Assembly (NCBI GenBank): GCA_002269645.1
Contig: NIVC01001426.1
Coordinates: 186,001-250,000, forward strand
Length of the DNA stretch: 64,000 bases
Direction of reading: 5' to 3'
Source of the DNA: Macrostomum lignano
Lineage: Eukaryota
Below the pieces are notes generated by a model, which was given only the letters and a program-made list of their open reading frames with translations, had not been told where the DNA came from and ran no database searches. Shown piece by piece: positions 13,418-64,000 of this stretch (within the stretch, counting starts at the first letter, position 1; each line of letters starts with the position of its first letter). A program made the position numbers and the translations under genes.

Positions 13418-13499
13418 TACAACTTTTAAAATACCACAAAGAACGTTACCGCACAATATCCGTAAAAACTATCTACATGTATTGTAGTTATTAAGCGAG

Positions 13500-29096: not shown

Positions 29097-29099
29097 TTA

Positions 29100-29610: not shown

Positions 29611-29650
29611 GATCGGATGGTGTCAAGATACCAGATGTCGGGAAGCCGAC

Positions 29651-30682: not shown

Positions 30683-30699
30683 AATCTTGGCTGTTATTC

Positions 30700-31353: not shown

Positions 31354-31364
31354 CGCCTGTTGAG

Positions 31365-31905
31365 CTAAATCCTTAATTTAAAAAGTCTAATTAAATTTCT
31401 TTTTCTTAAGCAACTCTCAAACCTTTGCAGCATTCTCTCATTCAAGTGGCTCTGCTGATTTGCATGGAGGTGCCGCAGAACCCTCCATGCAAACGTGCTT
31501 GAAATGAAACTTTTGATAGAAAAATAGAGACAGAACAAACCGCATTTAGCAGAGTCGCAGCTCTGAATTCGATTCACGTTGCCACGTAAGTAGAATGGAG
31601 AATACCAAAAGGATTTCAGTGCTCCGTGAATGATCTCTAAAGTGCTGGAGTCCCAGCTCAGAGAGTTAAAGAGTTCTATGGAATTCTCCTTATCAGCATA
31701 GCAAACCACCCAGTGACCGAAGGATGCAGCTGTACTGAAGCAGAAAGAAAATAAACTTACATCGAGATAAATTTCTTTTGAGAGTTGCTCGCTGAATAAA
31801 GTTTAAAGCATAAGATGTTTTATTTATTAAATTCAAGACAATAATTAAATAGTTATTTTGAGGTAAAAAGCTTTTAGCCAGTTTAAGCAATTGAAAAGCA
31901 TCCAT
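31365..31905 (-). pseudogene. Adenain-like cysteine protease (frameshifted)
   Basis: GHWVVCY...ELFNS...RIQSCDSAKCGLFCLYF gives the His, Gln and Cys positions (Asp replaced by Asn). The probable N-terminus MDAFQL (31905) is in another frame. Confidence 0.8.
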
Positions 31906-31928
31906 ATTAGCGTTGCGCCAGCGTACTC

Positions 31929-32635
31929 CTAGGATGGAAAATCTAGCAGAATCTCCCTGTGCTTCGTGACCTCAATCAGTGAGTCATACAGGCACATAAC
32001 AATCAGAGATACAGGCTCCTCCAGGGCCTGTCGGAAGCGAATCTCCAGCCGCAAATTGCCCTCCTTCTGTCCGTACCACAGGGCCGCTCCCTCAGGCGTG
32101 AGATCGAATGCGAAAGCTGTGTTGCCGTTGGAGAACAACTGGTAGGAGACCCACGGAACCGAGTTGGTACTTGGTAGGGCTGGCTGACTGACAGCTTTTC
32201 AGGTAGTTTAAGTACTCTCTCACGAATGAATTATTCTCAGGTGCAAATGCAGCGTGGCACATGGCTTCACCACCTTTCTTTAGTGCTAGCTGGCTGAGGT
32301 TGAAGCTCTGGAACTCGAAGGGGCTCGAATGGTGATAGCCATTGAAGGCTCGGTGGTTCACGAAGACCAGCATAACGAACTTCGGCAGTTTGCCATGGGT
32401 GAATCCTTCAATGTTTTTTGACTGAATTCTCTGGGGTAGAATAAAGTTTTGCATTTCGGTTCGCTCGATGGGGTAAAGTGCGTTCTGATTGGTCAGTCCC
32501 TTGCTCATGCGCCAGGCTGATGTGAGGCGCCACTTTGACTCGGCGCAGGTTCAGAATGCAGTGGGAGATTTCCATTCGGTAGGCTGTGTTGTTATCATTT
32601 GGGGTTCGAATGGCGAATGCAGCATCGCTGGGCAT
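31929..32635 (-). pseudogene. Polinton major capsid protein, 3' half only, two frameshifts
   Basis: LNLRRVKV.P.I.LAHE / ALYPIERTE...GKLPKF....V...AFNG....PFEF / AFDLTP...GNLRLEIRF..AL...V.LIV...D..IEV...R.I..D. The 5' half is replaced by otopetrin sequence at 32640. Confidence 0.88.
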
Positions 32636-32639
32636 CAGC

Positions 32640-33534
32640 TGAGCGCGCTCATCACGTAGTACTCAATTAGGAACGGATAAAGACTTCGAATGATTGAGTC
32701 AATAGGAACCCTTGTACAATAGGAGCCAGCAAACTCCCCGTGGGCAGTTTCATTGAAAATTATTTCTCTCAATTCGAAGCCGACATTTATGAACCAGGTG
32801 GAAATGTTTGTGGCAATGACGTGGGCAAAAACTAAGCAGGCTGCGCGCAGCTTCCATTGGAAGCTTACCCTGTGGTACAGAATGGAAAACCTCGTCTGAG
32901 TTATAATAAAAATTAGCAAAATCAGACGTCTGAATACGTCAGGCAGATTTTTGCGTAAAAATTCTGCACGTTCAATTGACGCAATAACTCCGCATTCCAT
33001 TTCGATTATGATGGACAAGCAAGAGAATAGCGCGAATAGCAGTGACGTGAAGATCAAGAGCATGGATGGCGAGCTGTTCAGCCTCCTTGGCAGGTAGGCA
33101 TATCGATCAACACTCTTCAGAAGCAAAACTCCTGCTTTTTGTTGCAGCAGGTCTGATTGAGACCCATGGTCGCACACCTGCAATGCAACTAGAGGCAGTT
33201 TGCCTTGCACTATGGCCCACCTCTGCAGGTACAGAAGTCCAGCTATGGCGGGAAGCAGGTAGGCGCATTTAATACCAAACCAAGTCCATTTAATGATGCC
33301 TCGATTTTTGGCACCTCGATCGCTTGCATCAGTTTTTTCGACGTCCTCTAAGAAGTCCTGCGTTTCAACAATAGTAGTTACAAAGCCTAGGGCAATCAGC
33401 AACATCGCATAGATGAAGCACTTCAGCTTGAACACCGTAGAGATTTCCATCGTTGTCGGCTGCACCTCTGATTTTGATAGCAGGTGCTGACGCTCCGTGG
33501 TGATGTCGGCCTGTAGGGTTGAAATTGTCGTCAA
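32640..33534 (-). pseudogene. Otopetrin 5' half (duplicate), truncated after TM6
   Basis: Near-identical to 19190-20079; retains LYPFLIEYYVMSAL, then stops at the MCP junction. Confidence 0.9.
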
Positions 33535-36073: not shown

Positions 36074-37771
36074 TAATGCCACTAAAGTTCTTTCTTGTGC
36101 CGCTGCCCATTTAATTTTTCTTTTTAGAGACGCAGAGGAAACACCGCTGAGGGGGAACGCTGGAGGGGAATGTCCAGTAGCCGTTTCAAATAAATAGTCG
36201 GCAAAAAATCTGGCTTGGCAGCAGCTTCTTCAAAGATTAACGCACATTATCGTTAAAAACAGCATAACATATAAACATCTTAATTAGTATTGTGCTCGGG
36301 TACATTAGTACTGATGAGTAATCTCTAGTTTTCGACAAGTGTGCCCGACATATCGCCCACATACCGCATCGGCCCACGTGTTTGCACCAACCCCCCCCCC
36401 AGGGGGGTTTGCATCAACCCCCCAGCCTAGCTGCCTGCCCCCTCCCAATTCTTTCTACCCCGGCCCGCTCCGTACCCAACTCTGATTGGCTGCCCTTCTG
36501 TGTGCAACCCAATTTTTTTCCCATAAGCCCCGCGCCTTGTCATGTTTTCACGTTTCCTAGCCAATTATAAGTTTCCCGGCTGCTCTATTGCCGAATCCCT
36601 GACCCTAAAAGACTAAGTAGTAATTGTATACATGTATTTATATAAAAATAATGATGTGATAAGCGAGAGAGAGGGCGCCTATTGGCTTCACCCATATTAC
36701 CTTTAGAACAGTCTGATAAAAAAACTTTAGATCCGAAAGTATACATTCAATAATAGCCAACGACGCTAAAGTCACCCACATATGACACGCAAGGCCGAGT
36801 AAAAGTGAGTTTCCGTTTTGCACTAGTTCCTTTTGGAACCGTAAAACGAGTCTGTACGGTAACAGGGACTCATATGACGCGGACTGAACGAGTTAGGCTA
36901 CGCGATTCACCCGCTCAGGTTCCAACGTCAGTCTGACGCAAACATACGTTCGTCCGCTATGCTCGAGAGCGTAGTAGCTAGTGAAGATCACTTTGTCGTA
37001 ACAATAGGTATATGCACATGTGTAACGGCTTAATTTTGTGTCGCAATTAAAAAGCATCCGACTTCACGTCAAAATTCCACAGATCTAAGTTTCACATCTA
37101 CAAAGGTTAAGCATCCTTGACACTACGACAAAGCGGCAACAATTAAAATTATCAACGTACAACGTACATATATACAAGGTTTCACATCGCGAAATAGCTA
37201 GCGAGACTTCAGGGTGATTACAAGCAGGCTGCGTGACCCAGCACCGGAGACAACAGAAACATTCCCAGATCGGGCACCAACCACGCTTAACAAAGAGGTC
37301 AAATCGGATTGATTGAGGCGTCCGCACCTCCCCCCCCTCCCTAACAACACCCAAAGTGATTTTGTCTGTAATCGTATAAAATTAGACCATGAAACGAGAC
37401 AATACGCTCGTAACTTGTTCTTGTTGGTAATTGTAATTCCAAGTAAATAGCATTAATGCATGGCAAACAACGCCAAAAATTGTCACGATATTAATTAATG
37501 TGGGAGAAAACAGTGATGAACTTGCTTGGCACTGGGTAAATTTGCACACACACAGCCTTTTGTTTGGTTAAAAAGAATCAAATGCTAGGCAGTTCACACG
37601 TTTTCTAATCAGATAAAAACGATTCAGCTGTTGACTTTGGAAAGTCTGGAAAACTGGTGTACCAAATGCGGCTGAATCTCTATTAATATGTCGAGCGGGT
37701 CTGAATCTCCCAGACTCACGGCACATTAAAAAAAGCGATAAAGCAGCGCAGAATTGCGATCTTGCTGAGTA

Positions 37772-39798
37772 ATGGAAAAAGAAACCGATCAATTGGATGC
37801 CAAGGAGTTCCTGACGGACACTGACGACTGGCTCGCGTTCGTCCGCTGCATCGCCGACGACAACGCTGACGACCTCAAAGAGTTCCGCGACTCTCTCGGA
37901 CCCTCGGACTGGGCCGCATTTCTCGCCAGCTCCGACCACCGAGGAGCTCGAGCTCGAAACCAAGCCGACTGGATCGGGTCTGGCGATCCAGAGCAGGACG
38001 ACAGCGACATTCCGTTCCCCACCAACCCGTTCTTCGTCGCCATGTTCTACAACGCTCAGTGGTGTCTGCGCCTCATGCACGAGACCTCGGACAGCGGAAA
38101 GGACACGGTGGACTTTGCTAAGATCAGAGAGCGAGGCTTCACGGCCTACCACATGCTGCTGAGCGCCGTCAGCTTCATGTCCGGGACGGAGCAGCGCACG
38201 GAGCAGCCGACGGACTGCGGTAGTACCGGCCGAGATCTCGTCGAGCTCTTTCATCGCCGCCTGTTCACCAGACAACAGCAGGCCGAGATGCTGCAGGTCA
38301 GCAGCCGAGGGATGACGCCAATGAGCTGGGGCGTGTTTCTCGGACTGGCCGGTCATGTCGAGTACATCATGCTGCACCACCTGGCCAGCAGCGAGGTGCA
38401 CTCGGACTCGGTAGGCATTCGAGAGCGAGTGAGCGTCGATGTGACCGACTGGTTCGGCGAGAACCCGGCATTCTTCACCAGCCCGATCTGCGTGCTGCTC
38501 GACGTGTACAGCCAGGCCACCCTGGCGGAGCTGAAGGCGGCGGGCGTGTTCCGCAACGGCTTCCTGTGGAGGCGCTGGGTCGAGGCGCTGTACGACCGCA
38601 ACCGGTGGATCATAATAGTTATTGCTTGTCTTATTTTCTTGCAACTGCTGTCCGTCACCATCTTTTCAGGTCCGGGTATGAAGGCCCTATTTTTTAAATA
38701 CTGTTTTAGCGCGTCATCGCAAGGGGTGGAGAATCCTGCATCCTTTCTTCTCGTACTTTCTACATGCCTGTCAAGCTCTTTGCTCTTTCTGCTCTTCGCA
38801 GCAGCAGGTCTGCTAAGAAAGGAAATGTTTAGGTCAGTAACCAAAGTTAGACTATATTGTGCATACATGACTGTTTATTCTTTGTAATGGAAAATCAATA
38901 ATTTAAAAACAGAAGGAAGGTCGGCTACCCAAGGCGGCCCCGAAGGAGCTACAGAGATCTGCTGTCGTGGCTGCTGCCATGCTCCGTGTCGCTGCCCACT
39001 GCTGCGCTGCTCCTTTGGCTGCACGTCGACATTCGAAGTAGCTGCGCTCTGTTCAATCAGGCGGTCTACACTGTGCAAGGTTCTGGCATAAGACTTCTTC
39101 TTCTAATGAGTCTAAGCCTGCTTTTCTGGTTCATGCGCCTTCTGCCGTCAATATCCGCCGTAATGAGCAGTTTTCATCGTAGTTTAACAACTTTTCTCAT
39201 GTTTTTCACGTTCTACCTCTGTATTACGGCAATATTTGCGCGCATGTTCCACGGAAGCGAACCCATGTCTCTCGTGTCTACATGTAATTCAACTACAAAT
39301 GCTAACGCACTAAGTGGCTACATAAAGGCATTCTACACGACCTTCCTGGTGTCCCTCAACATTATCGACACCAGCCTCTACCTGCCCGAGATCGACCGAA
39401 TCGACCTCCTCATCACCCACGTGACCTACGTCCTGTTCGTGCCCATCCTATTCATCAACTTCGTGGTCGGAGTTCTGTCCTCGGCCGTGAACCACGTCAT
39501 CGAGCACGAGGTAGAGAACAGGTACTTGATCATGCTGACTGTGGCCGAGATTATCGAGCGAGATTACAGCTGCATCAGGAGTTTGTTGAGCAGGATGCTG
39601 GGCAGGTGGTTGGGTAAGCAGAAGCGAATCCTGATTGGCGGCTACCTGCCGATCACAGGCGGCAGTCGGCTGTTCAGCGGCCGCGCTTCGTCGGACCGGC
39701 AGCAGAGCAGCTTTAATTCTCAGACTGAGGCGACGCAGGTGATCAGCAAATCTGGTTGGCCTCGCCGGCACTTCATCAACTTTCCGGATGTGGAATGA
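37772..39798 (+). CDS. TRPV-family (TRPV5/6-like) cation channel; exons 37772-38832 and 38913-39798 (648 aa)
   Basis: Ankyrin-like GFTAYH and GMTPMS segments, six hydrophobic helices, pore FYTTFLVSLNIID, S6 ILFINFVVGVLS. An 80-nt AG|GTCAGT...CAG intron joins the two ORFs in frame (intron inferred). Confidence 0.78.
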
Positions 39799-40249: not shown

Positions 40250-41225
40250 AGACAGCAAGCATCCCCCAGATAGCAAGCATCCTCCAGATTGCAAGCAACC
40301 CCCGGATAGCAAGCATCCCCCAGATAGCAAGCATCCCCCAGATAGCAAGCATCCCCCAGATAGCAAGCATCCCCCAGATAGCAAGCATCCCCCAGATAGC
40401 AAGCATCCCCCAGATAGCAAGCATCCTCCAGATTGCAAGCAAGCAAGCAAGCATCCCCCAGATAGCAAGCATCCCTCAGATAGCAAGCATCCCTCAGATA
40501 GCAAGCATCCCCCAGATAGCAAGCATCCCCCAGATAGCAAGCATCCCCAAGATAGCAAGCATCCCCCAGATAGCAAGCATCCTCCAGATTGCAAGCAACC
40601 CCCGGATAGCAAGCATCCCCCAGATAGCAAGCATCCCCCAGATAGCAAGCATCCCCTAGATAGCAACCATCCCCCAGATAGCAAGCATCCCCCAGATAGC
40701 AAGCATCCCCCAGATAGCAAGCATCCCCAGATAGCAAGCATCCCCAGATAGCAAGCATCCCCCAGATAGCAAGCATCCCCAAGATAGCAAGCATCCCCCA
40801 GATAGCAAGCATCCTCCAGATTGCAAGCAACCCCCGGATAGCAAGCATCCCCCAGATAGCAAGCATCCCCCAGATAGCAAGCATCCCCTAGATAGCAACC
40901 ATCCCCCAGATAGCAAGCATCCCCAGATAGCAAGCATCCCTCAGATAGCAAGCATCCCCAGATAGCAAGCATCCCCCAGATAACAAGCATCCCCCAGATA
41001 GCAAGCATCCCCCAGATAGCAAGCATCCCCCAGATAGCAAGTATCCCCAAGATAGCAAGCATCCCCCAGATAGCAAGCATCCCCCAGATAGCAAGCATCC
41101 CTCAGATAGCAAGCATCCCCCAGATAGCAAGCATCCCCCAGATAGCAAGCATCCCCCAGATAGCAAGCATCCCCCAGATAGCAAGCATCCCCTACATAGA
41201 TAGCATCCCCAAATAGCAAGCATCC
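40250..41225. repeat. 18-bp satellite CCCCCAGATAGCAAGCAT
   Basis: About 54 units; same monomer as 12000-12520. Confidence 0.97.
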
Positions 41226-41299
41226 ACCAGACAATAAGTAGCTAGTGCGACAATTTCCTTAGCATTATAGTGGCTCCTTTAAAATTCGCTTACTTTTAC

Positions 41300-43790
41300 G
41301 TTTGAAATTGTGTAAATTTTATGTTTGACATGGTGGCTCTTTTATGTTCTACATGGCAACTCTTTTATGTTTGAAACGATGGCTTTTTAATGTCTGACAT
41401 GGTGGCTCTTTTATGTTTGACACAGTGGCCCTTTAATGTTCGACAAAGTGGCTATTTAATGTTTGACAAGGTGGCTTTTAAATGTTTGACATGGTGGCTC
41501 CTTAATGTTCGAAATGGTGGCTCTTTAATGTATGACATAAAGACACATATATAATTGACATGGTGGCTCTTAAATGTTTGACATGGTGGCTCTTTATTGT
41601 TTGACATAGTGGCTCTTTAATGATCGACAAAGTGGCTCTTTAATGTTCTTCATGGTATAGCTCTTTTATGTTCGACATGGTGGCTCTTAAATGTTTGACA
41701 TGGTGGCTCTTTAATATTCTACATTGTGGCTCTTAAGTGTTCGAAATGGTGGATCTTTTAGGTTTGACATGATGGCTGTTTAATGTTTGACATGGTAGCT
41801 CTTTTATGTTGACATGGTAGCTCTTTTAGGTTTGACATGGTGGCTGTTTAATGTTTGACATGGTAGCTCTTTTATGTTGACATGGTAGCTCTTTTAGGTT
41901 TGACATGGTGGCTGTTTAATGTTCAACATAGTGGCTCTTTAATATTCTACATGGTGGCTCTTTTATGTTTAACATGGTGGCTCTTTTGTTTTACATGGTG
42001 GCTCTTTAATGTTTGACATAAAGTCACTTATATGTTCGAAATGGTGGCTCTTTAATATTTTACATTGTGGCTCTTAAGTGTTCGACATGGTGGGTCTTTT
42101 AGGTATGACATGGTGGCTCTTTTATATTCTACATTTTGGCTCTTAAATTTTCGACATGGTGGCTCTTTTTGGTTTGACATGGTGGCTCTTTTATGCTTGA
42201 TATGGTGGCTCTCTAATGTTTAACATGGTGACTTTTAATGTTAGACATGGTGGCTCTTTAATGTTCGACATGGTTGCTCTTTGATATTCGACAGGGTGGC
42301 TCTTAAATGTTTGATATGGTGGCTCTTTATGTTTGACATGTTGGCTCTTTTGTGTTTGACATGGTGGCTCTTTCATGTTTGACATGGTGGCTCTTTTTTG
42401 TTGAAATGGTGGCTCTTTTTTGTTCTACATGGTAACTCTTTTAAATCTGATACGGTGGCTTTTTTAATGTCTGACATGTTGGCTCTTTTATGTTTGACAT
42501 AGTAGCTCTTTAATGTTCAAAATGGTGGCTCTTTTATGTTTGACATGGTGGCTCTTTAATGATTGACATGGTGGCTCTTTTATGTTCGAAATGGTGGCTC
42601 TTTAATGTTCGAAATGGTGGCTTTTTAATGTTCAAAATAGTGGCTCTTTTATGTTCGACATGGTGGCTCTTTAATGTTCGAAATGGTGGCTCTTTAATGT
42701 TCGAAATGGTGGCTCTTTAATGTTTGACACAAAGTCACATTTATGTTTGACATGGTGGCTCCTAAATGTTTGACATGTTGGCTCTTTTATGTTTGACATG
42801 TTGGCTCTTTTATGTTTGACATAGTGGCTCTTTGATGTTCGAAATAGTGGATCTTTTATGGTCGACATGGTGGCTCTTTAATGTTCGAAATGGTGGCTCT
42901 TTAATGTTCGAAAAAGTGGCTCTTTTATGTTCGACATGGTGGCTCTTTAATGTTTGAAATGGTGGCTGTTTAATGTTCGAAATGGTGGCTCTTTTATGTT
43001 TGACATAAAGTCACTTATATGTTTTACATGGTGCCTCTTAAATATTAGACATGGTGGCTCGTTTAGGTTTGACATGGTGGCTCTTTTATGTTTGACATGT
43101 TGGCTCTTTAATGTTCGACATGGTGGCTCTTCTATGTTCGAAATGGTGGCTTTTTAATGTTCAAAATAGTGGCTCTTTTATGTTCGACATGGTGGCTCTT
43201 TAATGTTCGAAATGGTGGCTCTTTAATGTACGACATAATGGCTCTTTAATGTTTGACAATGTGGCTTTTGAATGTTTGACATGGTGGCTCTTTAATGTTT
43301 GACATGGTAGCTCTGTTATGTTCGACATGGTGGCTCTTTAATGTTCGAAATAGTGGCTCTTTAATGTTCGAAATGGTGGCTCTTTAATGTTTGACACAAA
43401 GTCACATTTATGTTTGACATGGTGGCTCCTAAATGTTTGACATGGTGGCTCTTTATGTTTGACATGTTGGCTCTTTTATGTTTGACATGTTGGCTCTTTT
43501 ATGTTTGACATAGTGGCTCTTTGATGTTCGAAATAGTGGCTCTTTTATGGTCGACATGGTGGCTCTTTAATGTTCGACATGGTGGCTTTTTAATGTTCGA
43601 AATGGTGGCTGTTTAATGTTCGAAATGGTGGCTCTTTTATGTTGATATAAAGTCACTTATATGTTTTACATGGTGCCTCTTAAATATTAGACATGGTGGC
43701 TCGTTTAGGTTTGACATGGTGGCTCTTTTATGTTTGACATGTTGGCTCTTTAATGTTCGACATGGTGGCTCTTCTATGTTTGACATTGCG
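41300..43790. repeat. ~23-bp diverged satellite TGTTTGACATGGTGGCTCTTTAA
   Basis: About 2.5 kb of head-to-tail units. Confidence 0.95.
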
Positions 43791-44549
43791 CTTCTTTTAT
43801 GTTTAGCAGTTTCGTGTTTTTAAGGTGTTTTAATAAAAAAAATCTTTTTTGCACTACTAAGATTCGAACCCAGGTCGCTACATTAGCATTCCAGTCTGTT
43901 CGCATCAGGGCTATCTTTTTTCAATTGGAGAACATGAATTGTGGCCCTTATAATTCAATTCTTACAGCAAGTCAATTGGAGTAAAAAGTTATGACATAAT
44001 CAATTTCTCAGTCAGCCAGTATCAGTCTCAGTTCAAGTTAGCAATATTGGTTACGCAATTTTAATCAAGTCGTGTGTGCATTTCTTCGACACTGTTTTCA
44101 ACTTGTTGTGATGCAATCTTTATCAGAATTGAAATTCAGTCAGTCATTTTTTCTCTAGCATTCTTACAATGCATTTCAGGTCGAAAGAGCTGCTTGACCT
44201 TTGCAAAAAAGCATGTTTTTCGAATATTTAATCCCTTTAACATTGAGCAATTTCTTAGCCAAGATGCATGTACCGTCCCAGGAAAATTTCTGATCGAATG
44301 GTGCAAGTTTGAAGAAAATCGGTTGAGCCAATTTTTCTGAAATCTATCGCATACCTACCCACATACATACATACAGACAACTCATTTTTAGTATATAGAG
44401 TGGAACTCCTCCTCTGGAGGAGATAGAGGAAGAAATCCCATCACCGGAATTCCATTCCCTGAAATATCCATCAACTGAAATTCCATGCCTTGAACCCTAT
44501 ATTCCAAATCGTCTCCAAATTCTTTACAAAACGTTTCAAAGACCATAGC

Positions 44550-50805: not shown

Positions 50806-52104
50806 TATTGATGGGAGGACAACAAAATCAGCCATATATGCTTCAGAACTGCAGTTAAATACATAGCAGTGATAGGCTGCTCAGTGTGTAGGCGTGCAGG
50901 CGGAGCCAATGCACAGTTGAGTGAAATCTATAAATAGCAATTTTCTATGGAGTCCGCCAGTCAGAGCCAGGGTCAGAATGTACACACGCAGCCACTGAGC
51001 ATTTTTTCTCCTTGCACACTGCAACCAGTATTGAAGCTTACACAGTGGAGAGAGAAAAGTTATGGCGCAATCATAATTGGAATTGGAATTCAGCCAGTCC
51101 AGTCAAGAATTCAACCTAGTTTGCCCTACCATTAAAAGCATCGGGAAAACTCGTTTTTCGAATATTTAATACCTTTAGCATTAAAGCCAATTAAAGAAAT
51201 TTTAACTGTCTTCTTTCCAGATAATTACAAATCTTTTCGTAAAAACGCGATTAAAATTGGTCAATTGGTTCTATCTCTATAACGTTATGCAAATAATAAC
51301 ACAAATTCTCTTCGAGTGAAAGTCACACGAAGCAGCTATGACATAATCAAATACTCAGGCAGTCAGCATCAGTCTCAATTAAAGTTAGCAATATGGTTAC
51401 GCAATTTCTGTCTTTCAACTTGGCACAGTGTTTTCAACTTGTTGTGATGCAATCTTTATCAAAATCAGAATTCAGTCAGTCGGTTTTTTCTCTAGCATTC
51501 TTACAGCGCATTTCAAGTCGAAAGAGCTGCTTGACCTTTGCAAAAAAGCATGTTTTTTGAATATTTAATCCCTTTAGCATTAAAGCAGATTAAAGAAATT
51601 TTAACCGTCTTCTTTCCAGACAATTTTAAATCTTTTGGCGAAAACGCGATCAAAATCGGTGAAGAATTGCAGTCTCTAGAGCGTTATGGACATTCATTCA
51701 TTCAAGCATACAAACCTTAGAGATTTAGTATATTTAGACTAGCAATCTACGCCCCCCGTTGGGGAGCCAAATAAATGCAATACACGTTTTTTAATAAGCA
51801 ACATGTAGCTAAGCCTTGAAATCTTAAAAAATCTCCTGTCAAACTTCTAACCATAACCCCAACCCTAACCATAACCCCAACCCTAACCATAACCCTAAAT
51901 TGAATATTTTGTTCACGAGTTTTTGCATGATGCTTGCATTATTTTTTGCATGACGCTTCCATAAATATTTTTAATAGGCTACTACATGAGCTAAGTTATA
52001 AGCTACCCTAACCCTAGCCCTAAGCCAAATCTTAACGCTATACCCTGAACCTAACACTAAACCTTGAAACCCTAACACCAATCCTAACACTAACCCTACA
52101 GCCT

Positions 52105-53645
52105 GACATTTTCATAAGTTTGTGAAGCGCTTATGCACCAAATTTTTGTGAACAGAATATTCTCAGTGAAATGAAATATTTGAAGCTTTATTTATTCCCG
52201 GCATAGCACATCACTACAAAGAACGTGCATATACGCGTACCATTTAATACTGGCATACTTTAAGCGTAGGATGATACGAAACTGCGTGAATAAATTCGCC
52301 GAACTATTAAACATTTCTGTTAGTTTCACGATTATTATACACAGTACATGTACAAAGTAACAGTACTGTTCAACTGTACTGTTACGAGCTACAACAAACA
52401 AAAAACAACAAACGACCGGTACGTGCTTTTAATTAAATTTTAAACAACCGAAAATTGACGTTCAGCAGTTAAAACAATATTTAAACCAACACATGCATTT
52501 ATTCAAATGATATGATATGATCTTCTGCTGCTAATACGAGCGTAGCAGGTGAAAATTTGCAATGATGTAATAATTAATTAACAAAAGGATAGACTGTCGC
52601 TTCAGCAGATGGTGCCATCGACAAGCAGCCAGTATAGCTTTAGCAGTACAAAAATGTACATGTATATGCCATCCTGACTACCTGCCGACTCGCGTCACTG
52701 CTCAATTGCATGCATTGGGTGTAAGCAAAGGTAGAGACATTCATTCTCAAACCAAAATTAAGTCGCTCCGCTCTGCTTAAGGCTGCTACAGAGCTTGACT
52801 GCAAATGCTCCTTTTAGAGTCTGGAACCACAGGGTATATAGAGCAGCTCCTATACACCATTCACAAACTCTTTTAGCCCAGTTAAGATGCAGTCAACCTA
52901 CTCTCAATGAGGGCTGCTTCATAAATTCCGATTATACATACATGTTTCACCTGCTTATACCTGTACTATTTCTGTTTACTGACTGTATTTTATGGTCTGT
53001 TCAGCGACTGTATTAGTGACTGCATTATTGTCTGTTTAGAGGCTGTATTGTCTGTTAAACGACTGTATTGTCTGTTTAGAGGCTGTATTGTCTGTTTAGA
53101 GGCTGTATTGTCTGTTAAACGACTGTATTGTCTGTTTAGAGACTGTATTGTCTGTTAAACGACTGTATTGTCTGTTTAGAGGCTGTATTGTCTGTTAAAC
53201 GACTGTATTGTCTGTTTAGAGACTGCATTGTCTGTTAAAGGCTGTATTGCCTGTTTAGACATTGTATTGTCTGTTTAGAGACTATATTGTCTGCTTAAGG
53301 CTGTATTGTCTGTTTAGAGGCTGTATTGTCTGTTTAGAGGCTGTATTGTCTGCTTAGAGGCTGTATTGCCTGTTTAGAGGCTGTATTGTCTGCTTAGAGG
53401 CTGTATTGTCTGTTTAGAGGCTGTATTGCCTGTTTAGAGGCTGTATTGCCTGTTTAGGGATTGCATCATTGTCTGTTAAAGGCCTGTATTTATTCTGTAA
53501 TTTCTACTTTAAGTACTGTTACATTTATGTCCTATGAGTATAAGGAGGAACTTACGAAACATTCCTCGTAAATAGGATTTACTCAATGCACTCTCTCAGG
53601 GCTATCAGTTCATTGAGACTCTACGCGACTTTGATTTCACTCTCA
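52105..53645. repeat. Long direct repeat, copy 1 (partner 56630-58825)
   Basis: ~52581-53140 appears identical to ~57080-57640; outer parts are clearly homologous but diverged; includes a 20-bp satellite at 53020-53490. Confidence 0.9.
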
Positions 53646-53692
53646 GCCATCAGACGCTCGGGTCAAAAAAGTGGCGCGCCAACTGTGGCAAC

Positions 53693-55264
53693 TCACTGAT
53701 ACGAAGTGCTGTTCTGTACGCTGTGATCATCGAACGACATTCTGCTCGACTCATCCTGACCGTCGACACCTCCACTGCGGTGAAACTGACTCCGGTCATC
53801 ACCCGTCGACACTCGTCTGTATCGAATCTGCGAGAAGAAAAAATTTATAAGGATATAAAATATGCGTAACAAGAAAGTCCTATTAAGCATGAATACATAA
53901 AAGCAACACAATAAGTACTGTTCTCTTTGCTATTCAATTTGCGATTTTCAAAATAAATAGCTTAACTGAACACCTGTCTAACCTGGTAACCTAACAAACT
54001 TTATTATATTTAATCTTAATACTAAAAGTGGTGCGTTGTTTGTCTGTATAATCAACTAAATTTGTAGAAAATCACTCACCTTTTTGCCATTTCCGAAGTC
54101 CCTCACAATTTCCTTCGAGTGTTTGTCATAAAACTCAAACAAGGCAGCAGGCTCCCGAATTATGGTCACACTTTCGTCTCCAATCTCATCAGCACCAAGT
54201 CCTGGAGTAGGCACTGGAGCGGGCACAGGTTCAAACCGGGTATCGCCTTCCTTTGCATTCCTATACCAGTCAGCCAAGACTCTGGCTTCACCATCGTCAC
54301 TGTTGCATTTTACGTCAGAGTTCGAGCATCCCAACGTGACGGAGCCCGAATACTCCTGCACCTTTGCTCTTCTTATGGACAAAACATCGCCGATGTTCCA
54401 CCTGTCCACTTGAGCTGAGGACGAACCCCAAAACGTGCAGCTTACAGAGCCGAAGGTTCGGTCAACCAAAGTCACTTTGGCTACGTTAACCTTTTTCCCA
54501 GCACGCGTTCGGACTTCTTCAGACGGTTGCCTGGCGTCGATCACTCCAAGCACATCGACGATTCTGATAGTGAAAGGGAGCAAAGGGACTTTTTTTAACT
54601 ATTTGCACACTAACTTAAGCATCACATTAGATTTCTATTTGTACACTAACAGGAGCATCATGAAGCTAATAACCCAGGCTTCGTACAGTGTTGCGATGAT
54701 AAATATTTTCAAACACAAGACAAACTAACTGTCACCCAAAAACACGATTACATGTACTTTCACTCCGCGATATTTGAGCACTAATACATGACGAAAACTA
54801 CTAAATCAATTAGTCACTCACCTGTCCAATCCAGTCTGTTGCAGTTGATTAATGCTAGTGTAATCAATTACTGGATCTCGAGCAACCGGCACTTCGTTGC
54901 TTCTATAGATGAAGCCCTTGGAATCCACGGAAACGGTCATCTCAAGTGGATTGTCCGTACACTTGTACTCTGGCTTGGCAGTCTTCACCATCCCGCCGGA
55001 TATGCGAACGGCTTCAGCATCGTTGCATACTTCCCAGATAGCTTGCAAATCCTTACCGAAGACGCTGACTCGCATCTCAGATGAGTCGTCCACCAAGATG
55101 AACGAAAACACTTGGCCCTGACCTTTGTTGTTATTATACGTGTGAACGTCTTTCAGGTTCGTCACAAGGCCAGTGACAGGCGTAGGCATTTGCCCAACTG
55201 TCAGACCGGCAATCCCATCCTTCTTCGACTTCTTTTTCAAAGGTGACTCTGAATAAGAGGCCAT
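53693..55264 (-). CDS. RPA70-like tandem OB-fold ssDNA-binding protein; exons 55264-54822, 54563-54080, 53827-53693 (353 aa)
   Basis: GQVFSFILVDDSSEMRVSVF and IVDVLGVI...VTLVDRT..SV.CTFWG match RPA70 DBD-A and DBD-B; GTGAGT donors and pyrimidine-rich CAG acceptors in frame; basic PLKKKSKK near the start; no zinc-finger DBD-C. Confidence 0.88.
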
Positions 55265-55479
55265 TTTGCACAAAATATTATTCAACAATTGAAAAAAGAA
55301 CTGATAAAAAGTATCAATCAAACTTTTTCTAAGCAATGATAAGCTTTAACTGTAAGACAACAAAATTGGCTCAACAAATCACAAGCTATATATATGTAGA
55401 AATAAAAGTAGCCACGAAAAAAACACCACCTCCCCTCCAGCCCAGTACATTGTACTCAATTTTGCATTCATTTTTACTT

Positions 55480-55995
55480 TATTACACAATCTAATTGGCT
55501 GGACACACAACCCAACCCAATCACTCCAGTGCCCAGCATTAAAGCACACACTGCACCCTCTGATGTACGCTAAGGTCTCCTCACTTTTCTCACCTAATCC
55601 TTTTGTTTGTTTGCTATCTCGTTTTATGGTGACACAATTCTCACCGACTGACTCAGCAAGTGTAGGCAATACTTTAAGAGTTCGCGGCCGCGTGTACTTC
55701 ACTGCACAAACAAAACTTGTATGGCGCGGCTGACTGGTTGAGCCATTTTCGCACCTTCTAAGCCGGGAAAGAAAAATAGGCGACCCTCCTCAAGTCAGGC
55801 TGCATGGCCACCAGTACGCTAGACAATTTTTAGGCCAATCGCCGCTCTAAAGCCCCGACCTGCACAACCGACCAATAGGAAGCCTCAGACTTGTACAGAA
55901 AACCACCGTAAGGCTCAGCGAAGCGACGACGCACAACCCATAACCCCTAATTTTATTCGCCCCTACACCTCAGTTTCAGTGCCTATATAGTCTGA
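55480..55995. promoter_or_regulatory. Candidate bidirectional promoter
   Basis: Lies between divergent ATGs (55264 minus, 56088 plus); CCAAT at 55835 and 55872; TATATA at 55984. Confidence 0.4.
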
Positions 55996-56087
55996 TATAG
56001 TCTGATTCATATATTTAGAGTCATATATTTCTATATTAGAGTCTCAACAAATCATATTTTCTCAATCAAATCATCAACAAATCAACA

Positions 56088-56553
56088 ATGCATATTACAC
56101 AAATATTTGGTGGCGGCGGCGGCGGTAGGCGAGGCGGCGGTCAGCGCGGCGGCTGGCAGCGCGGCAGGGGCGGCCCACGCGGAAAGAGCAGTGAGTACCT
56201 TCCTAAGACACTGTAAATCTTGTGCTTTGAGTACATTCGAGTATAGTCTTAAATTTTATCTAATTGTAGCCTGTTACTGACTTTCATGCTACTCGTATTA
56301 TTACTGATAAATTTTGCAAAAATTTCCCTTCTTTTAATTGCCAGTCGTTTGTTTCTTCTGTGGAGGCCGCCACCGCGTTGCCAGCTGCAACGCGATGAAG
56401 GCCGCCGCCCGCCTTCTGCAGCAGCAACAGCAGCAGCAACAGCAGCAGCAGCAGCCGCAGCAGCAGCCGCAGCAGCCGCAGCAACAGCAGCAGCCGCAGC
56501 AGCAGCAACAGCAGCCGCAGCAACAGCAGCCGCAGCCAATGAATGAATTGTAA
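56088..56553 (+). CDS. Small RGG-rich / CCHC zinc-knuckle-like / polyQ protein; exons 56088-56190, 56345-56553 (103 aa)
   Basis: CAACA-ATG; MHITQIFGGGGGGRRGGGQRGGWQRGRGGPRGKS, GTGAGT donor at 56191, pyrimidine-rich CAG acceptor at 56344, in-frame IVCFFCGGRHRVASC, then ~35 Q/P residues. Confidence 0.7.
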
Positions 56554-56629
56554 ATTCCAAAATAAACTATGACTTTTTTGACTTTTGATTAAAATCCGCG
56601 ATAGACTTATTTATTTTTTTGGACTTTTG

Positions 56630-58825
56630 AAACAATGGCGCACCAGTACAAAGTTTTGTGAACAGAATATTCTAATGCCATGAAATATTCAAAGTATAAT
56701 TCATTCTCACCATAGCATGTCATGACAAAGAATGACCGTACATACACACTTACCATTTCATACTGGCTTACTTTGAAAGTAGAACAATACGAATCTGCAT
56801 GAATAATTTCGCCGAACTATTAAACATTTCTAAGTTTTACGATTATTATACACAGTACAAAAAACTGTTTTATCCATTTTTAACTGCTATAACTAACAAA
56901 GAAGCAAACGGCGAATTAAATTTTAAACTATTAACAACCACAAATTGAAGTTTAAAAATTGAAACAAAAGTTAAACAAACACTTGTATTTATTCAAACGA
57001 TATATGATCTGCTTCTGACTACTAACGCTGAGCAAGTTTAATATTTCGTACAGATATTGAAAAATGTAATAATTTATTACAAAAGGATAGACTGTCGCTT
57101 CAGCAGATGGTGCCATCGACAAGCAGCCAGTATAGCTTTAGCAGTACAAAAATGTACATGTATATGCCATCCTGACTACCTGCCGACTCGCGTCACTGCT
57201 CAATTGCATGCATTGGGTGTAAGCAAAGGTAGAGACATTCATTCTCAAACCAAAAATTAAGTCGCTCCGCTCTGCTTAAGGCTGCTACAGAGCTTGACTG
57301 CAAATGCTCCTTTTAGAGTCTGGAACCACAGGGTATATAGAGCAGCTCCTATACACCATTCACAAACTCTTTTAGCCCAGTTAAGATGCAGTCAACCTAC
57401 TCTCAATGAGGGCTGCTTCATAAATTCCGATTATACATACATGTTTCACCTGCTTATACCTGTACTATTTCTGTTTACTGACTGTATTTTATGGTCTGTT
57501 CAGCGACTGTATTAGTGACTGCATTATTGTCTGTTTAGAGGCTGTATTGTCTGTTAAACGACTGTATTGTCTGTTTAGAGGCTGTATTGTCTGTTTAGAG
57601 GCTGTATTGTCTGTTAAACGACTGTATTGTCTGTTTAGAGGCTGTATTGTCTGTTAAACGACTGTATTGTCTGTTTAGAGACTGCATTGTCTGTTAAAGG
57701 CTGTATTGCCTGTTTAGACATTGTATTGTCTGTTAAACGACTGCATTGTCTGTTTAGAGGCTGTATTGTCTGTTAAACGACTGTATTGTCTGTTTAGAGG
57801 CTGTATTGTCTGTTAAACGACTGTATTGTCTGTTAAACGACTGTATTGTCTGTTAAACGACTGTATTGTCTGTTTAGAGACTGTATTGTCTGTTTAGAGG
57901 CTGTATTGTCTGTTTAGAGACTGTATTGTCTGTTTAGAGGCTGTATTGTCTGTTTAGAGACTGTATTGTCTGTTTAGAGGCTGTATTGTCTGTTTAGAGA
58001 CTGTATTGTCTGTTTAGAGGCTGTATTGTCTGTTTAGAGACTGTATTGTCTGTTTAGAGACTGTATTGTCTGTTTAGAGGCTGTATTGTCTGTTTAGAGA
58101 CTGTATTGTCTGTTTAGAGACTGTATTGTCTGTTTAGAGACTGTATTGTCTGTTTAGAGGCTGTATTGTCTGTTTAGAGACTGTATTGTCTGTTTAGAGA
58201 CTGTATTGTCTGTTTAGAGGCTGTATTGTCTGTTTAGAGACTGTATTGTCTGTTAAGAGGCTGTATTGTCTGTTTAGAGACTGTATTGTCTGTTTAGAGA
58301 CTGTATTGTCTGTTTAGAGACTGTATTGTCTGTTTAGAGGCTGTATTGTCTGTTTAGAGACTGTATTGTCTGTTTAGAGACTGTATTGTCTGTTTAGAGG
58401 CTGTATTGTCTGTTTAGAGACTGTATTGTCTGTTTAGAGACTGTATTGTCTGTTTAGAGGCTGTATTGTCTGTTTAGAGACTGTATTGTCTGTTTAGAGA
58501 CTGTATTGTCTGTTTAGAGGCTGTATTGTCTGTTTAGAGACTGTATTGTCTGTTAAGAGGCTGTATTGTCTGTTTAGAGACTGTCTGCATAGTGACTGTA
58601 TTATTGTCTGTTTATACCTGTACTACTATCTGTTTAGTGACTGCATGATCAGTGGCTGTAGTTTTGTCTGTTAAATGACTGTATATCATGTTCGTGTAAA
58701 ACTGTTATAGATGAGTATAAGAAAGAACTTATGAAACATCCCTCGTAAATAGGATTTACTCAATGTACTCTCTCAGGGCTATCAGTTCATTGAGACTTCA
58801 CGCGACTTTGATTTCATTCTCTACA
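56630..58825. repeat. Long direct repeat, copy 2, with expanded 20-bp satellite (57520-58620)
   Basis: CTGTATTGTCTGTTTAGAG(A/G) x~54 within the repeat; flanks match 52105-53645. Confidence 0.9.
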
Positions 58826-58892
58826 GTCAGACGCCAGACACTTCTCAAACACATCTCTTGGACTTGAACTCACGAATAGCGTCCGAAATTGC

Positions 58893-61800
58893 TTAGTCTC
58901 CAGTCAGCACCTCTGGGTACACCACGTTCCTCGTCTTAGTTCCAGAAGTACGGACACGGACATTAGCAGCGTTCCTCGCTCGCGACAGAGCCGTATACAG
59001 CTGGCCATGAGTGAAGCAACCGACAGCGAGGTCCACGCCAACTGTGTCCAGAGACTGTCCCTGCGACTTGTGGATCGTCAGGCAGAAGCTCGGCTTCACA
59101 GGGAACTGCAGCCGCTTGAAACTGACGGGGAGGTCCGCATTGCTTGGAATCAGCGGGATTCGCGGCAGAAGAATCTCGTCTCCCGTGAACTGGCCGGCGG
59201 CAATCTTGCATCTAAGCACGTTCTCGCCCATCGCGAGTATGATGAGCCGCGTACCATTGCACAATCGTGGCGGGTTGATGTTCCTGAGAAGAACTACTGG
59301 CATACCCTCCTTTAGCCTCAGCAAGTGAATCGGAAAGTTCGGGGCATCCAGCTGGTTGAGCAACTCAGGCGGGAAGTGCGTAGCGGCATCCTCATCGGCC
59401 ACAGTGTCTATCGAGCGGTACTCCCGCAGGCTTCCGGGGAACATGCCCAGACACGTCTCATTGATGGCATCCACTGAGTCATTGTAAGGCGCCAGGATCG
59501 CTCGGCTTGCAAAGTAGCTGTCTCTCTCCACTGGTTCTTCAAACGATGGGTACACAAAATTGATTAGATCAGTGAGAGGCCCTTCCGCAGAAATCACGAT
59601 CTCGGCTGGCAGAGACACTTTCTCCTCCGCATCCTGCTTCATTGTTCCGGATCCGATCTGTGGAGGGTTAAAATGTCGAATATTTCATAACCTATACACA
59701 CTTTTAAGCATAGACATTCCTAAATGACGCAAACTTAAAAAAATTGAGCTCAAAAACAAATCCGCGTCTAGTGTATCATTGTCAATCATTTAATAAACTG
59801 ATGAAATCAGACTTACCTGCTTGAGTAGCTCGGTGTACATCTGATACGCTACAGAATCGGAACTGCTCAGCATCCGGATGTTTCTCGTCAGGCGATGCCG
59901 TTGGAAGTATTTCCACAGTGAGGATCGGCTAACACACGCCATGACACTGTTAGCACGAGTCCCATGCACCACAACGGGTAGGAGCTGCCGGAAGTCACCA
60001 GCGCACACAAACACCAGTCCGCCAAATGGCGAGTCCTGCTTCCGCACATCTCGCAAGCACCGGTCGACCGCCTCCAAATCCTTCCGGTTTGTCATAGAAA
60101 TCTCGTCCCACACAATTAGACGCGCTGTGCGAAATACAGCAGCTTGTTTGGACTGCACTCCAACAGCGCACACGTCCTTGTTTGAGCGTAATACCCGAAT
60201 TGGTATCTTGAACCTGACATGGAAAAATTTGGGTATCATACAGCAGAGGAAGTATTCACATATTTACTTGTTTAATTATTCGTAAGTTACTAATAATTTA
60301 CAAATTAAATATAAACAACTCACGTGGAATGCGCAGTTTGTCCACCTGGCAACAGAGTCGCTGCGATTCCTGAAGCCGCAACGGCGAGAGCGACTTCACC
60401 CCGGCTGCGCACGAAGGCCAGCAAAACCTCCAGCAGGAAAGTCTTGCCAGTACCAGCGGGCGCGTCCAGGAAGTGCAAGCCGCCGTTGCCGCTCACAAGA
60501 TCCTGAGTCACTGACTTGTACACGTCTTTCTGCTCGTCTGTCAGCATTGGTAAGCGTGCCTCAGTAATCTGCGCTTGCTCAATCGTATCGAACTGCATCG
60601 GTCCATCTTGAGGCATCACGGAGGCCGCAGGCAAGCCGTACTCTGGCAGGCTTCTCCCACCCATGGAGGTCAGCATGCTCTGCAGCTCGCGGAGCGCTAG
60701 GTCAGTAATCTCCTCGGCACTTAAATCTCGATGGTGGAACCGCAGGTCCTCGCACATATCTTCGGCAAAAGAGCACCAAAGGTCGTTGCCATCCTCAGGC
60801 TCGCCCCATATGAGAATGACAGCCAGAATGTGTCTCAGGGCTCTTGGCATTCTTGACTGAACGGCCTCAGCTAGGCACCGCCGCCAGTGGTCATCTCGCT
60901 GCAGCAGACCAAGTGCCATGCAAGCAGCCTTGGCGCTCGGATGCACAACGCCGTCCACGGTCTGCAGCGCCTCGAAGCTGGTTGGTCCCTTGACTCGCAA
61001 AAGAAGCATGCGAACATAAAATAAATCACCAGTTCTTGGGCTCACCGTGTACATGCGTGCAACGTTTGTGTTCCGCACTACACCCGGGTGGCCATCGACT
61101 TTCGCGCCTCGCTTGGCCCGCCGCCACACTCTTTCACTGGCATGCCACACGAAGTAGGACGGCACCTCCGTGTAGAGCAAGGACCGAGCAAACTCGTCAG
61201 TACGGCACAGCTTGAAAAATGCTGTCAACGTAGAGTCCCTCGGCGTCCTGGCTCTAGCACTTGCGGTCTGCTCGTTGAAATACACGAGCTGCTCCTCCGA
61301 CTTGTGAACGCAGAGCCGGATGACCGCCGGAAATCTGTCATGCACCTGATCAGAAGGTGGGAGAGAAATAATCGCTTTTAAGTTTTTTCTGAATACAAAA
61401 AGCCACAGTTTTGCAATATTTACTCTTAAAATTTAAAATATTTATTACTTCAAAGCCCAAAATTGTATTCACAGCTTCCATTGGGCCAATGTAGCGCGCA
61501 GACAGATACTCCTTGATTTCATCACGCGGCCTCTCTCCATCGTTTGCCGCTACCGTTTGCGTCGGCTGCTGACTACCCGCACTCTGTTCTGTCGCTTCAG
61601 CAGAATTCTGATTGGCATTGACTTTGAACGTTGCCATGTCGCCGCCCTTCAGCAAGTACTTGATCACGTACTTGACCGACTTTACAGTGGCACAAACTTC
61701 AACGTTCATGTGGCACGCAAACTGGAGCAACAGTTCAGGGCTATAAGGCACAACCCACCTGTGGTTTAAGGAAAAAAACATTGTCAAACGTTTCCAACAT

Positions 61801-63837
61801 AAAATACAAGAGGCACCTAATACTCATGACTCGCCTGTTGTCCATGCGAATGCTGCGGCCTTTGAACAGTTTGTCCACTGTAAATCCACCCATCTCAGGC
61901 GACAGTCTGCGGTACAGTGGGTAGCCAGTATCGCTGGTCAGCGTCACCTGCTGGAACTCCTTCGGAAAGCCCTTGCTGCATTCGCCATTCTCCATGCACG
62001 GGCACGCTGGATTGTCCTTGCCACAAGGGCCATGGATCATGTGCGTTTTCACCAGCTCATACAGCACAGGCTGCTGCTGTGGGTCCGGAATCTCGGCAGA
62101 CACGATGTCATCGTATCGGTCCGGAGTCACCCGCTGGCCACTCGCTAGCCACAGCAGAAAGTGCACATGGGGGAGACCTAAATTATCAAGAAAAGTATCA
62201 AGACATCTTTCAGTCCAATTATCCGATCTGTATCGAATTTGCATCACACAAACCCACCTGTATTTAGTATCTTTATAACGATATAACTATATAAATTTCA
62301 TAAAACATAATACTGAGACTTGTACTCACCACGCTTTTGGTACTCTAGCGAGCAGACGTGCGCAGCCTCTTTCCCATAGCGCTTCGTTAGCTGGGCCAGC
62401 AGAGCTTTCTTCTTCATTTCAAAGACTCGGCTAACAATGTCCGGTCGGTGTTCAGCCCGCTGTCCAGGCAGCAGCTGGGCGCTGATCTCCGGCCAATTCG
62501 GATTGCATGTTGCCGTGACAAACAGGTCCGGCTTACCAAACTTGTGAACATAGGTCATAGCGTCCTGCAGCCTCTCCATCAGGTACCTTGGCCCGCCAAC
62601 GAAGCTTGAGGACAGAAGCACATGTGCGGGCTTGCCTATGTCACTCGGATCTCTGTCCGTAGATCTGCCATCAGCTGCAAACAGAGCGTCCCGCAGACCG
62701 CTGTACGTCTCGCTGCGCAGGTCCTGCTGATGGGTCCGCAAATACAGCAGCCTCTCTGCCTCAATCTTTGCACACATGTCCACCAGGTACTGCTGAAACA
62801 ACCTTCGGCCATAGTGCAGCACACTGAACTGGCCCGCTCGCACCATGATTTCGCTTGCATAGTATTTCATGGGGTCAGTTTCTTGTCATTACTCATCCGC
62901 AACTCCGGGTGCCAGCCATCTTCGCCATTCGGGAACAGCAGCACATACTCCAGCGGGTCATATGAGCGGTGCGTCTCACTGATTCGCTGAGAACCGCCCC
63001 CACGCAGTTGAATCACGACGTCCCGACTGGCCGGTGCGTCCTCATTGTCCTCAACGATCAGGATACCGACCTCATTTGCCGTAGGCAAGTTGTAGCGCCT
63101 GATTTTAAACGGAGTTTGTGGGACACAAATTCTGTACAAATTGAATCACGTACTTATTACGCATTTTTGCGAGTTCGAGTTACAATCAAAATTCATAATC
63201 TCATTTTGATTTCGCTTTCGTTTACATTTTTAAATTTCGTTATAACAAACACGCTAACTTACCGAATGTGTTCCCCAGATGGTCGACGGTCAGGGTGAAT
63301 CACAATTCGCGCATCTCCCAGCTCTGGGTCTTGGCTAATTCGCTCAGCAGCAGCCTTCAGGCTGCGGACATAGCCGTTGCACTCGTGAAGCAGCGTCTGC
63401 AGCAGCTCCAGTAGTTCCGGCTTCACCTTTTGGCTGAGACTCTGGCGGCTTTCGAGTTCGCGATCATTGAAATACACCTGCCATCCCTGAGCTTCAGCAG
63501 AATCCTCTGCAAACAGCGGCGCCGTGCGGTGATGCATCTGGCCGCTGATGATGAAGCTAGGACACCAGCCTGGCACCAACCGCAGTTTGGCACCCAGCGA
63601 GGTCAGGTGCAGCGCCGAGTTTTAGCTCCTGATGTTGGCCAGGAACGTGGCACTCAATCTGTGCCGCCCCATGTACAGATCCGCCAGCACTTGAGGCACG
63701 GTGCGGCTGGGCAGCTTTACCTTGCCTTTGGCGCAGCAGAAATTCCTCGTCTCTGCGCGCCAGAGTAGAGCACCGCATTCCTGGCATGCCCTGTCCATTG
63801 GGCCGCACTCATGGGCCGTGGCCTCTGGCCTCGGCAT
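58893..63837 (-). pseudogene. Helitron Rep/PIF1-helicase (RepHel), multi-exon, one nonsense codon
   Basis: N-terminal C..CGA.....E....CC..GKV; HUH motifs DLFVTATCNP.W, EYQKRG|LPHVH (intron 62178-62329), KYVIKY; helicase motifs DAPAGTGKT, IVWDEISM, GDFRQLLPV, QFP.K.SF.LTIHKSQGQS, HGQLYTALSR. IRS*NSA has TAA at 63622-63624. More 5' exons may lie beyond the window. Confidence 0.93.
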
Positions 63838-64000
63838 TCTGTCAGGCCTGTGATCGAATTATATGCGTGCATAAATGGTAACTATAATATATACTGCCAA
63901 TATTTGTGAAATATAAAATGTAATATGTAGTTCAGAATAAAAAATTACTGTGACCAGTAGCACAAATAAGCCTACCTATTTTGAGCAGATCCTGCATCAG

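Follow-up and report, generated by a model that had tools for sequence, protein, structure and literature searches.

The cassette and its host Helitron

The window, a 64,000-nucleotide stretch of a Macrostomum lignano contig, carries on its minus strand a canonical, roughly 20-kb Helitron that runs on beyond the window and in which a two-gene cassette sits between the RepHel transposase gene (58893 upward) and the 3' hairpin-CTAG terminus (51767-51739). The two spliced genes diverge from a shared spacer, and both models translate as open frames, the RPA-like gene on the minus strand and a small gene on the plus strand, as the original prediction had described. The features of the locus are listed below.

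51739..51767, minus strand: Helitron 3' end, with a GC-rich hairpin at 51767-51751, then CTAG, then T
52139..53657, unstranded: downstream direct-repeat copy flanking the cassette, including a 20-bp minisatellite at 53026-53457
53693..53827, minus strand: RPA-like exon 3, short tail and stop, without DBD-C
54080..54563, minus strand: RPA-like exon 2, encoding OB fold B (REPA_OB_2 in Pfam)
54822..55264, minus strand: RPA-like exon 1, ATG at 55264, basic KKKSKK patch, OB fold A
55265..56087, unstranded: divergent spacer between the two genes, 823 bp
56088..56190, plus strand: exon 1 of the small gene, opening with MHITQIF and encoding a basic arm rich in RGG
56191..56344, plus strand: small gene intron, 154 nt, phase 1, GT-AG, position conserved in all clades
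56345..56553, plus strand: small gene exon 2, knuckle, predicted helix, Q/P tract, stop
56649..58834, unstranded: upstream direct-repeat copy flanking the cassette, minisatellite at 57525-58584
58893..64000 (on to window-equivalent 65170), minus strand: RepHel transposase, multi-exon

The predicted location inside a Helitron was borne out by the TC start, RepHel gene and hairpin-CTAG end found around the cassette. Specifically, the 5' TC terminus follows an A (a, then TCCTATATACTAAAA) at window-equivalent position 71870 (G000:C1426), beyond the window, and the motif recurs in sister copies; the other end fits the HLE1 pattern of a hairpin about 11 nt before CTRR and then T, with CTAG at 51739 followed by t, an arrangement common to the 13 ends listed. 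RepHel combines an HUH Rep and a helicase (Pfam Helitron_like_N, E 3e-46; PIF1, E 3e-20), with STPR and OTU-like matches, both below cut-off, at its N-terminus. A crude splice model of this gene, which has about ten introns, yields a 1541-aa open frame that does not by itself prove the gene intact. A 5.7-kb minisatellite occupies the 5' part of the element, between the TC end and RepHel. Copies 99-100% identical with different flanks suggest recent Helitron activity.

The T after CTAG at 51739 is the 5' end (TC) of an adjoining Helitron. Head-to-tail chains of this kind (CTAG/TC) occur at window position 51738 and at many other loci (C1328, C4209, C778, C755, C262), different families included, which suggests either insertion at the ends of other Helitrons or read-through concatemers.

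A two-OB-fold RPA70-like gene

The RPA-like gene consists of three exons on the minus strand with an open frame of 353 aa in translation. Exon 2 matches REPA_OB_2 above the Pfam cut-off, exon 1 yields an OB fold match, and DBD-A and DBD-B of human RPA70 align in sequence with exons 1 and 2, so that the two-OB-fold, RPA70-like protein with a basic patch proposed originally holds. The base-stacking aromatics are kept at three of four aligned positions in all covering RPA-like sequences, and the W in 14 of 15; we take these positions to be F238, F269, W361 and F386 of RPA70. All 18 genome matches to DBD-C (PF08646) fall at non-cassette loci (C670, C240, C2391, C2737, C586 and C584) and none at cassettes. 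Since a host RPA1 with DBD-C is thus located elsewhere in the genome, the cassette protein represents a truncated two-OB form, and the gene keeps of RPA70 just the two DNA-binding OB folds. Database searches with RPA-like queries returned three matches each, all from M. lignano except one Logan protein.

Intron 2 of the RPA-like gene also contains, on the plus strand at 54014-54047, a 34-nt motif resembling a Helitron 5' terminus (a, then TCTTAATACTAAAAG), which many contigs of public runs match with other flanks.

A short spliced knuckle/polyQ gene

The small gene encodes 103 aa in translation, with an RGG arm, the knuckle CFFCGGRHRVASC and a Q/P tract, in full agreement with the earlier description of a spliced gene of this length. 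Its intron runs from GTGAGT to CCAG; exon 2 places the CX2CX3HX4C knuckle at 56350-56388 and the Q/P tract at 56418-56536, and an AATAAA follows at 56561. The retroviral nucleocapsid is part of a Gag polyprotein; the small gene is stand-alone, with two exons and its own start and stop. The gag-type spacing CX2CX4HX4C (PF00098) is found in clade D (see below) and at four further loci (L048, L096, L127 and L128). PF00098 matches 2 of the 11 small-protein members tested, weakly (best E 0.0027), and clade D knuckles score 15.7-16.2 bits, under the cut-off of 20.8; the AC2 Pfam family matches none of the 11.

A 32-aa model of this region (pLDDT 88.6, pTM 0.44) predicts the knuckle followed by a helix entering the Q tract. 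Foldseek searches with it gave no match and VIA a best Z of 2.5 for this short query; the best ESM Atlas scores (0.77-0.81), to zf-CCHC clusters, are leads only. A prediction, run without alignments, of a complex between a clade-B RPA-like protein (residues 1-260) and its small protein (36-95) gave no answer, with a score of 0.00.

Pieces of non-LTR retrotransposons, several with RT and RNase H-like motifs, recurrently split the Q tract (CAG/CAA) or the knuckle near its end at L006, L014, L037, L041, L047, L052, L076, L086, L102 and L106, loci chosen for being interrupted and from which a frequency is not derivable. The Q tract is likely the landing site of a microsatellite-targeting LINE.

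Four clades of paired genes

Searches of the M. lignano genome (G000), together with fetched loci, revealed four clades of the small gene next to RPA-like genes that are 45-60% identical between clades.

Clade A (window): MHITQIF start, RGG arm, knuckle, Q/P tract
Clade B (RPA about 57% identical): MKVTI(I/V)E start, R-rich arm, knuckle, Q/E tract
Clade C (RPA about 46% identical): RGG arm, knuckle, Q tract
Clade D (RPA about 50% identical): exon 1 with a Y/P-rich start and Q tract; CX2CX4HX4C knuckle, RS tail

A decayed fifth type is present at L158/L159. Small proteins range from 70 to 155 aa across clades, and in every clade the intron is of phase 1, begins with GTRAGT and stops 5 or 8 nt short of the first Cys. 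The expected conservation of the Cys/His residues was upheld, the knuckle being kept in all four clades; the RGG box did not survive as a defining feature, given the R-rich arm of clade B and the RS tail of clade D. Across clades the constant element is a set of three parts, namely basic arm, knuckle and Q tract, and not RGG.

Sixty-two of 83 knuckle matches face an RPA exon 1 head-to-head at a distance of no more than 3.2 kb (26/29 in clade A, 20/29 in B, 4/4 in C and 12/21 in D), each with a chance expectation of about 2e-4, although the paired loci are not independent events because many are near-identical duplicates. The count used 93 RPA entries from 150 rows, excluding fragments and the most distant rows and dropping a weak clade-D match (C109); three further clade-C pairs were found afterwards. 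Neither C109 nor four other matches (C547, C1359, C3019 and C4464) proved to have a knuckle gene. Co-occurrence with RPA and RepHel, proposed earlier as a check, thus extends over distant families. Conversely, 21 of 83 knuckle matches have no RPA neighbour, 31 of 93 RPA entries have no listed knuckle (three gained one later), and several RPA clades lie directly behind the helicase without a small gene. In C2787 and C382 the clade D pair as a whole is flipped with respect to RepHel. The head-to-head module stands in that the genes are co-inherited and stay together when inverted and in the RepHel-less arrays of C1451 and C4530, but it can be dispensed with, and either gene can occur without the other. 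The pairing label needs two changes on the RPA tree, which neither establishes nor rejects a single origin (AU p 0.24; 22 rows chosen from loci in hand). At L087 and L051 two distinct RPA-like genes stand in tandem, and the one of clade B has no small partner gene.

No homologue outside M. lignano was present among the matches of profile, RPA-like and N-terminal queries (the N-terminal query found only itself), a reach that leaves room for distant or unannotated relatives. No host source gene was seen among the fetched genome matches.

Purifying selection on both genes

The dN/dS check called for by the original prediction gave omega values of 0.19-0.28 for the small gene. Across clades A-C omega is 0.19 (17 sequences, 42 codons, LRT 96.8), for copies chosen for having a model, one of which (L052) has a mutated acceptor; without the columns used for picking sequences it is 0.28 over 33 codons (LRT 46). 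The two exons give 0.27 and 0.28 separately, against 2.3 and 1.8 in shifted frames. Exon 1 phase is kept in 28 of 31 distinct copies with eight in-frame lengths, in a test that imposed no frame constraint (five further copies had no start motif), and 20 intron lengths split 7/7/6. Splice sites are conserved across introns of 86-516 nt, and the codons of the invariant Cys/His residues show synonymous changes. For the RPA-like gene omega is 0.25 (260 codons, 15 stop-free copies). Taken together, these codon patterns indicate that both cassette genes are under purifying selection. Clade D is the weaker case, as just 2 of 8 modelled copies have an intact exon 1; an exon-2 omega of 0.14 for this clade was set aside as circular, the copies having been picked by that very motif.

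Expression and the divergent spacer

Contigs of public runs, only guessed to be RNA, skip both RPA-like introns at CT..AC ends, intron 2 in X1 and X5 and intron 1 in X1, with X1 covering the introns as well. For the small gene, the proposed 56190/56345 junction was seen in sister copies and not in the window copy: contigs of none of four public runs span it, in a search that skipped the CAG repeat at 56401-56542, whereas public M. lignano proteins do so for relatives. A profile search of 1.84 billion protein representatives gave 11 matches, two from M. lignano (P0005 and P0014), the rest generic CCHC. P0005, P0016 and P0017 (NCBI BOX15_Mlig001744) join exons exactly at the clade-B splice sites of L047, L049 and L044, and P0014 (UniRef) carries the clade-A junction of L106/L107. 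These records lend support to splicing and not to range, as they may share strain or assembly. The BOX15 records presumably derive from the RNA-seq/TransDecoder annotation of M. lignano. That GenBank annotation is described, in the accessible text of PMC5730564, as built from RNA-seq transcripts and TransDecoder ORFs.

The CCAAT/TATA-containing spacer fared unevenly. Both motifs are present (TATA-like at 55387 and 55984, CCAAT at 55517, 55835 and 55872, ATTGG at 55365 and 55494), but CCAAT enrichment in the 823 bp is borderline, at 5 sites where 2.05 would be expected (p = 0.054), and it reaches significance in one of four clade spacers. The TATA-like box is not a proven promoter because the ORFs of public small-protein records start about 27 nt upstream of it. 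The spacer may act as a bidirectional promoter.

Gain, loss and amplification of the cassette

The direct repeat flanking the cassette is a duplicated 3' module whose core is identical at 440/440 positions (57079-57519 versus 52581-53020), with flanks at 81-85%. Four elements (C195, C2367, C2974 and C262) with RepHel 95-100% identical run from the helicase to the 3' end without a cassette. By contrast, the RepHel-less elements C1451 and C4530 contain five and four tandem cassettes, in which RPA copies are frameshifted beyond the second OB fold and small-gene exon 1 is lost in some. The cassette is an optional part of the element, and we infer that unequal exchange between the flanking repeats yields 0, 1 or 4-5 cassettes. 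Origin of the cassette-less elements by fresh deletion from the window copy was rejected, their 3' module being only about 86% identical.

Function of the cassette

The reading that we prefer, with a probability of roughly 0.4, is that of an optional two-gene helper cassette whose small protein would be a single-stranded nucleic-acid chaperone aiding transposition in trans. In the PDB the knuckle profile best matches LIN28, retroviral nucleocapsid and the RecQ4 knuckle (E 0.008-0.04), with DDX41 among the leading matches too, all of them weak. The RecQ4 knuckle has a close motif, C(F/Y)xCGxxHWAxQC; a basic segment upstream of it makes binding to single-stranded or forked DNA and to RNA stronger, with RNA preferred, and the knuckle does not bind dsDNA, according to the available text of PMC4757822. 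In Helitron transposition one strand is displaced at the fork (PMC5876387, accessible text). Under the chaperone reading, both genes would likely be co-expressed from one divergent promoter, and their products would likely act together on the strand displaced in rolling-circle transposition. The RPA-like protein would bind ssDNA through its two OB folds and, as it has no DBD-C, would be unable to form the host RPA trimer. Basic arm and knuckle would let the small protein bind nucleic acid that is single-stranded or forked, as the RecQ4 basic segment and knuckle do, and help the peeled strand to anneal, to be primed or to stay protected; the Q-rich helix would provide self-association or partner recruitment. 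If both proteins act in trans, RepHel-less cassette elements and cassette-less RepHel elements could complement each other, with unequal exchange between the flanking repeats setting cassette number.

We favour a single-strand chaperone in view of the lasting link with an RPA-type gene and of the fork model with its displaced strand. An RNA-binding factor that splices, exports or shields element transcripts, akin to SR proteins or CNBP and unrelated to the DNA intermediate, would leave the lasting head-to-head association with an ssDNA-binding-type gene unexplained. RGG, R-rich and RS sequences, among which the basic arm swaps across clades, are RNA-binding-type low-complexity arms, and RGG or RS arms with LIN28-like knuckles are typical of RNA binders, so that these features fit a transcript-directed role equally. 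Clade D, with its canonical CX2CX4HX4C knuckle and RS tail, resembles, we assume, SRSF7; LIN28 is the best PDB match, the roughly ten introns of RepHel would offer a substrate, and RNA is what the RecQ4 knuckle prefers (PMC4757822, available text). The small protein has no RRM, however, and cassette-less elements have near-identical intron-rich RepHel genes; we consider this role unlikely. Much the same can be said of a transactivator or anti-silencer of the AC2/TrAP or VANC type, perhaps acting on family-specific minisatellites, which seems improbable in spite of several points in its favour. Q-rich tracts are classic activation domains, and the 4-5 copies in RepHel-less elements would suit a dosage-acting trans factor. 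A single gag-type knuckle, on the other hand, seldom gives sequence-specific dsDNA binding. As far as the accessible texts go, the order of parts is that of AC2, a protein of some 130 aa from rolling-circle geminiviruses in which a basic region precedes a zinc-finger-like part and an activation tail (PMC7248346), and each clade has its own minisatellites, as VANC targets do (PMC5735166), but none of 11 members shows Pfam likeness to AC2, the AC2 tail is acidic, and dsDNA is not bound by the RecQ4 knuckle (PMC4757822).

A functionless rider, captured from a host gene or retroelement, with a Q tract that is just an expanding CAG/CAA microsatellite, is very improbable. The cassette is dispensable, many copies are broken, and Q tract lengths vary widely, often with retrotransposon interruptions; yet omega values of 0.19-0.28, the frame kept in 28/31, the preserved splice sites and the synonymous changes at Cys/His codons argue otherwise, as does the lack of a host source gene among the fetched genome matches. 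For knuckle and exon 1 this explanation is already largely refuted, which leaves the Q tract as the one part that it could still account for.

Returning to the helper cassette, a bolder version would treat it as a virus-like accessory operon that pairs a dedicated SSB with a nucleocapsid-like microprotein, keeps its parts (basic arm, knuckle, polyQ) although their sequence and arrangement change, passes between autonomous elements and multiplies on satellites that carry helpers only, and packages or condenses rolling-circle intermediates or counters host silencing. On the present comparisons this is a doubtful but not far-fetched proposal; if true, it would define a new class of DNA-transposon accessory gene, one that domain scans overlook for being short, spliced and low in complexity.

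Relation to known systems

RPA-carrying Helitrons (HLE1; plant, zebrafish and sea anemone) and Helentron RPA ORFs are known (PMC11417382, PMC4067079, PMC4683698), and RPA in Helitrons as well as RPA-only elements have been described (PMC4683698, PMC11417382, PMC4067079, PMC6431247), as the accessible parts of these papers state. Similar to HLE1 RPA Helitrons, again as portrayed in those parts, the window element has canonical termini, an OTU/STPR RepHel N-terminus and a separate RPA70 A/B gene downstream of RepHel; unlike known RPA Helitrons, it has a second, divergent knuckle/polyQ gene. C1451 and C4530 are of the Mothra type (Helitron ends, RPA, no RepHel), whereas the window element has RepHel. 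They share with the rice Mothra mother element the RPA gene, tandem-repeat blocks and RepHel sister families, but carry a two-gene cassette, up to 4-5 in tandem, in an animal host.

The small protein shares with RecQ4, nucleocapsid and LIN28/CNBP/SRSF7 a basic arm beside a CCHC knuckle of similar C(F/Y)xCG..H..A..C form. It differs from RecQ4, nucleocapsid and LIN28 in being free-standing, 70-155 aa long, single-knuckled, Q-rich in its tail and transposon-encoded, with similarity at E 0.008 or worse and a knuckle mostly one residue shorter (CX2CX3HX4C). With AC2/TrAP and VANC it has in common being a small accessory protein of a selfish replicon, in AC2 with the order basic, Cys-His, activation tail; no sequence similarity was detected and the tail is Q-rich rather than acidic, so this is an analogy only.

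The original prediction knew of no description of the second gene in Helitrons, and none was found in the published papers on Helitrons, RPA and zinc knuckles that were searched, Repbase reports, subscription reviews and bioRxiv supplements being outside reach. The HELIANO supplementary file (Table S11, stably carried domains) has no zf-CCHC or knuckle match, and the accessible part of PMC12801592 mentions C. elegans Helitrons only. The small gene is real, selected and modular; as an accessory gene it seems to be undescribed, its partner is of a known kind, and it is limited so far to one species. Its case shows that ORF/Pfam surveys of Helitrons can overlook accessory genes that are short and spliced.

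These results touch on why some Helitrons keep RPA and which helpers rolling-circle transposition needs; the Helraiser work, in its accessible text, does not explain how the displaced strand becomes dsDNA (PMC5876387). A direct test is possible since sister elements that naturally have or lack the cassette coexist in a species capable of transgenesis (PMC5730564, accessible text).

Other features of the window

On the minus strand, 28533-32550 contains a TBP ORF (Pfam E 6e-21), an ATPase-like ORF, a weak Peptidase_C5-like match and other ORFs, a cluster that we take to be a Maverick/Polinton-type remnant. Otopetrin-like ORFs are duplicated at 18564-20079 and 32635-33534 (weak to moderate Pfam matches), and an ion-transport-domain ORF lies at 37769-39798. 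Minisatellites of 18 and 23 bp at 40250-41231 and 41317-43804 match those in clade-D Helitrons (L108 and L134), which makes both arrays probable inner parts of non-autonomous Helitrons. At 11326-13423 an 18-bp array is enclosed by long inverted repeats (395 nt, 99%).
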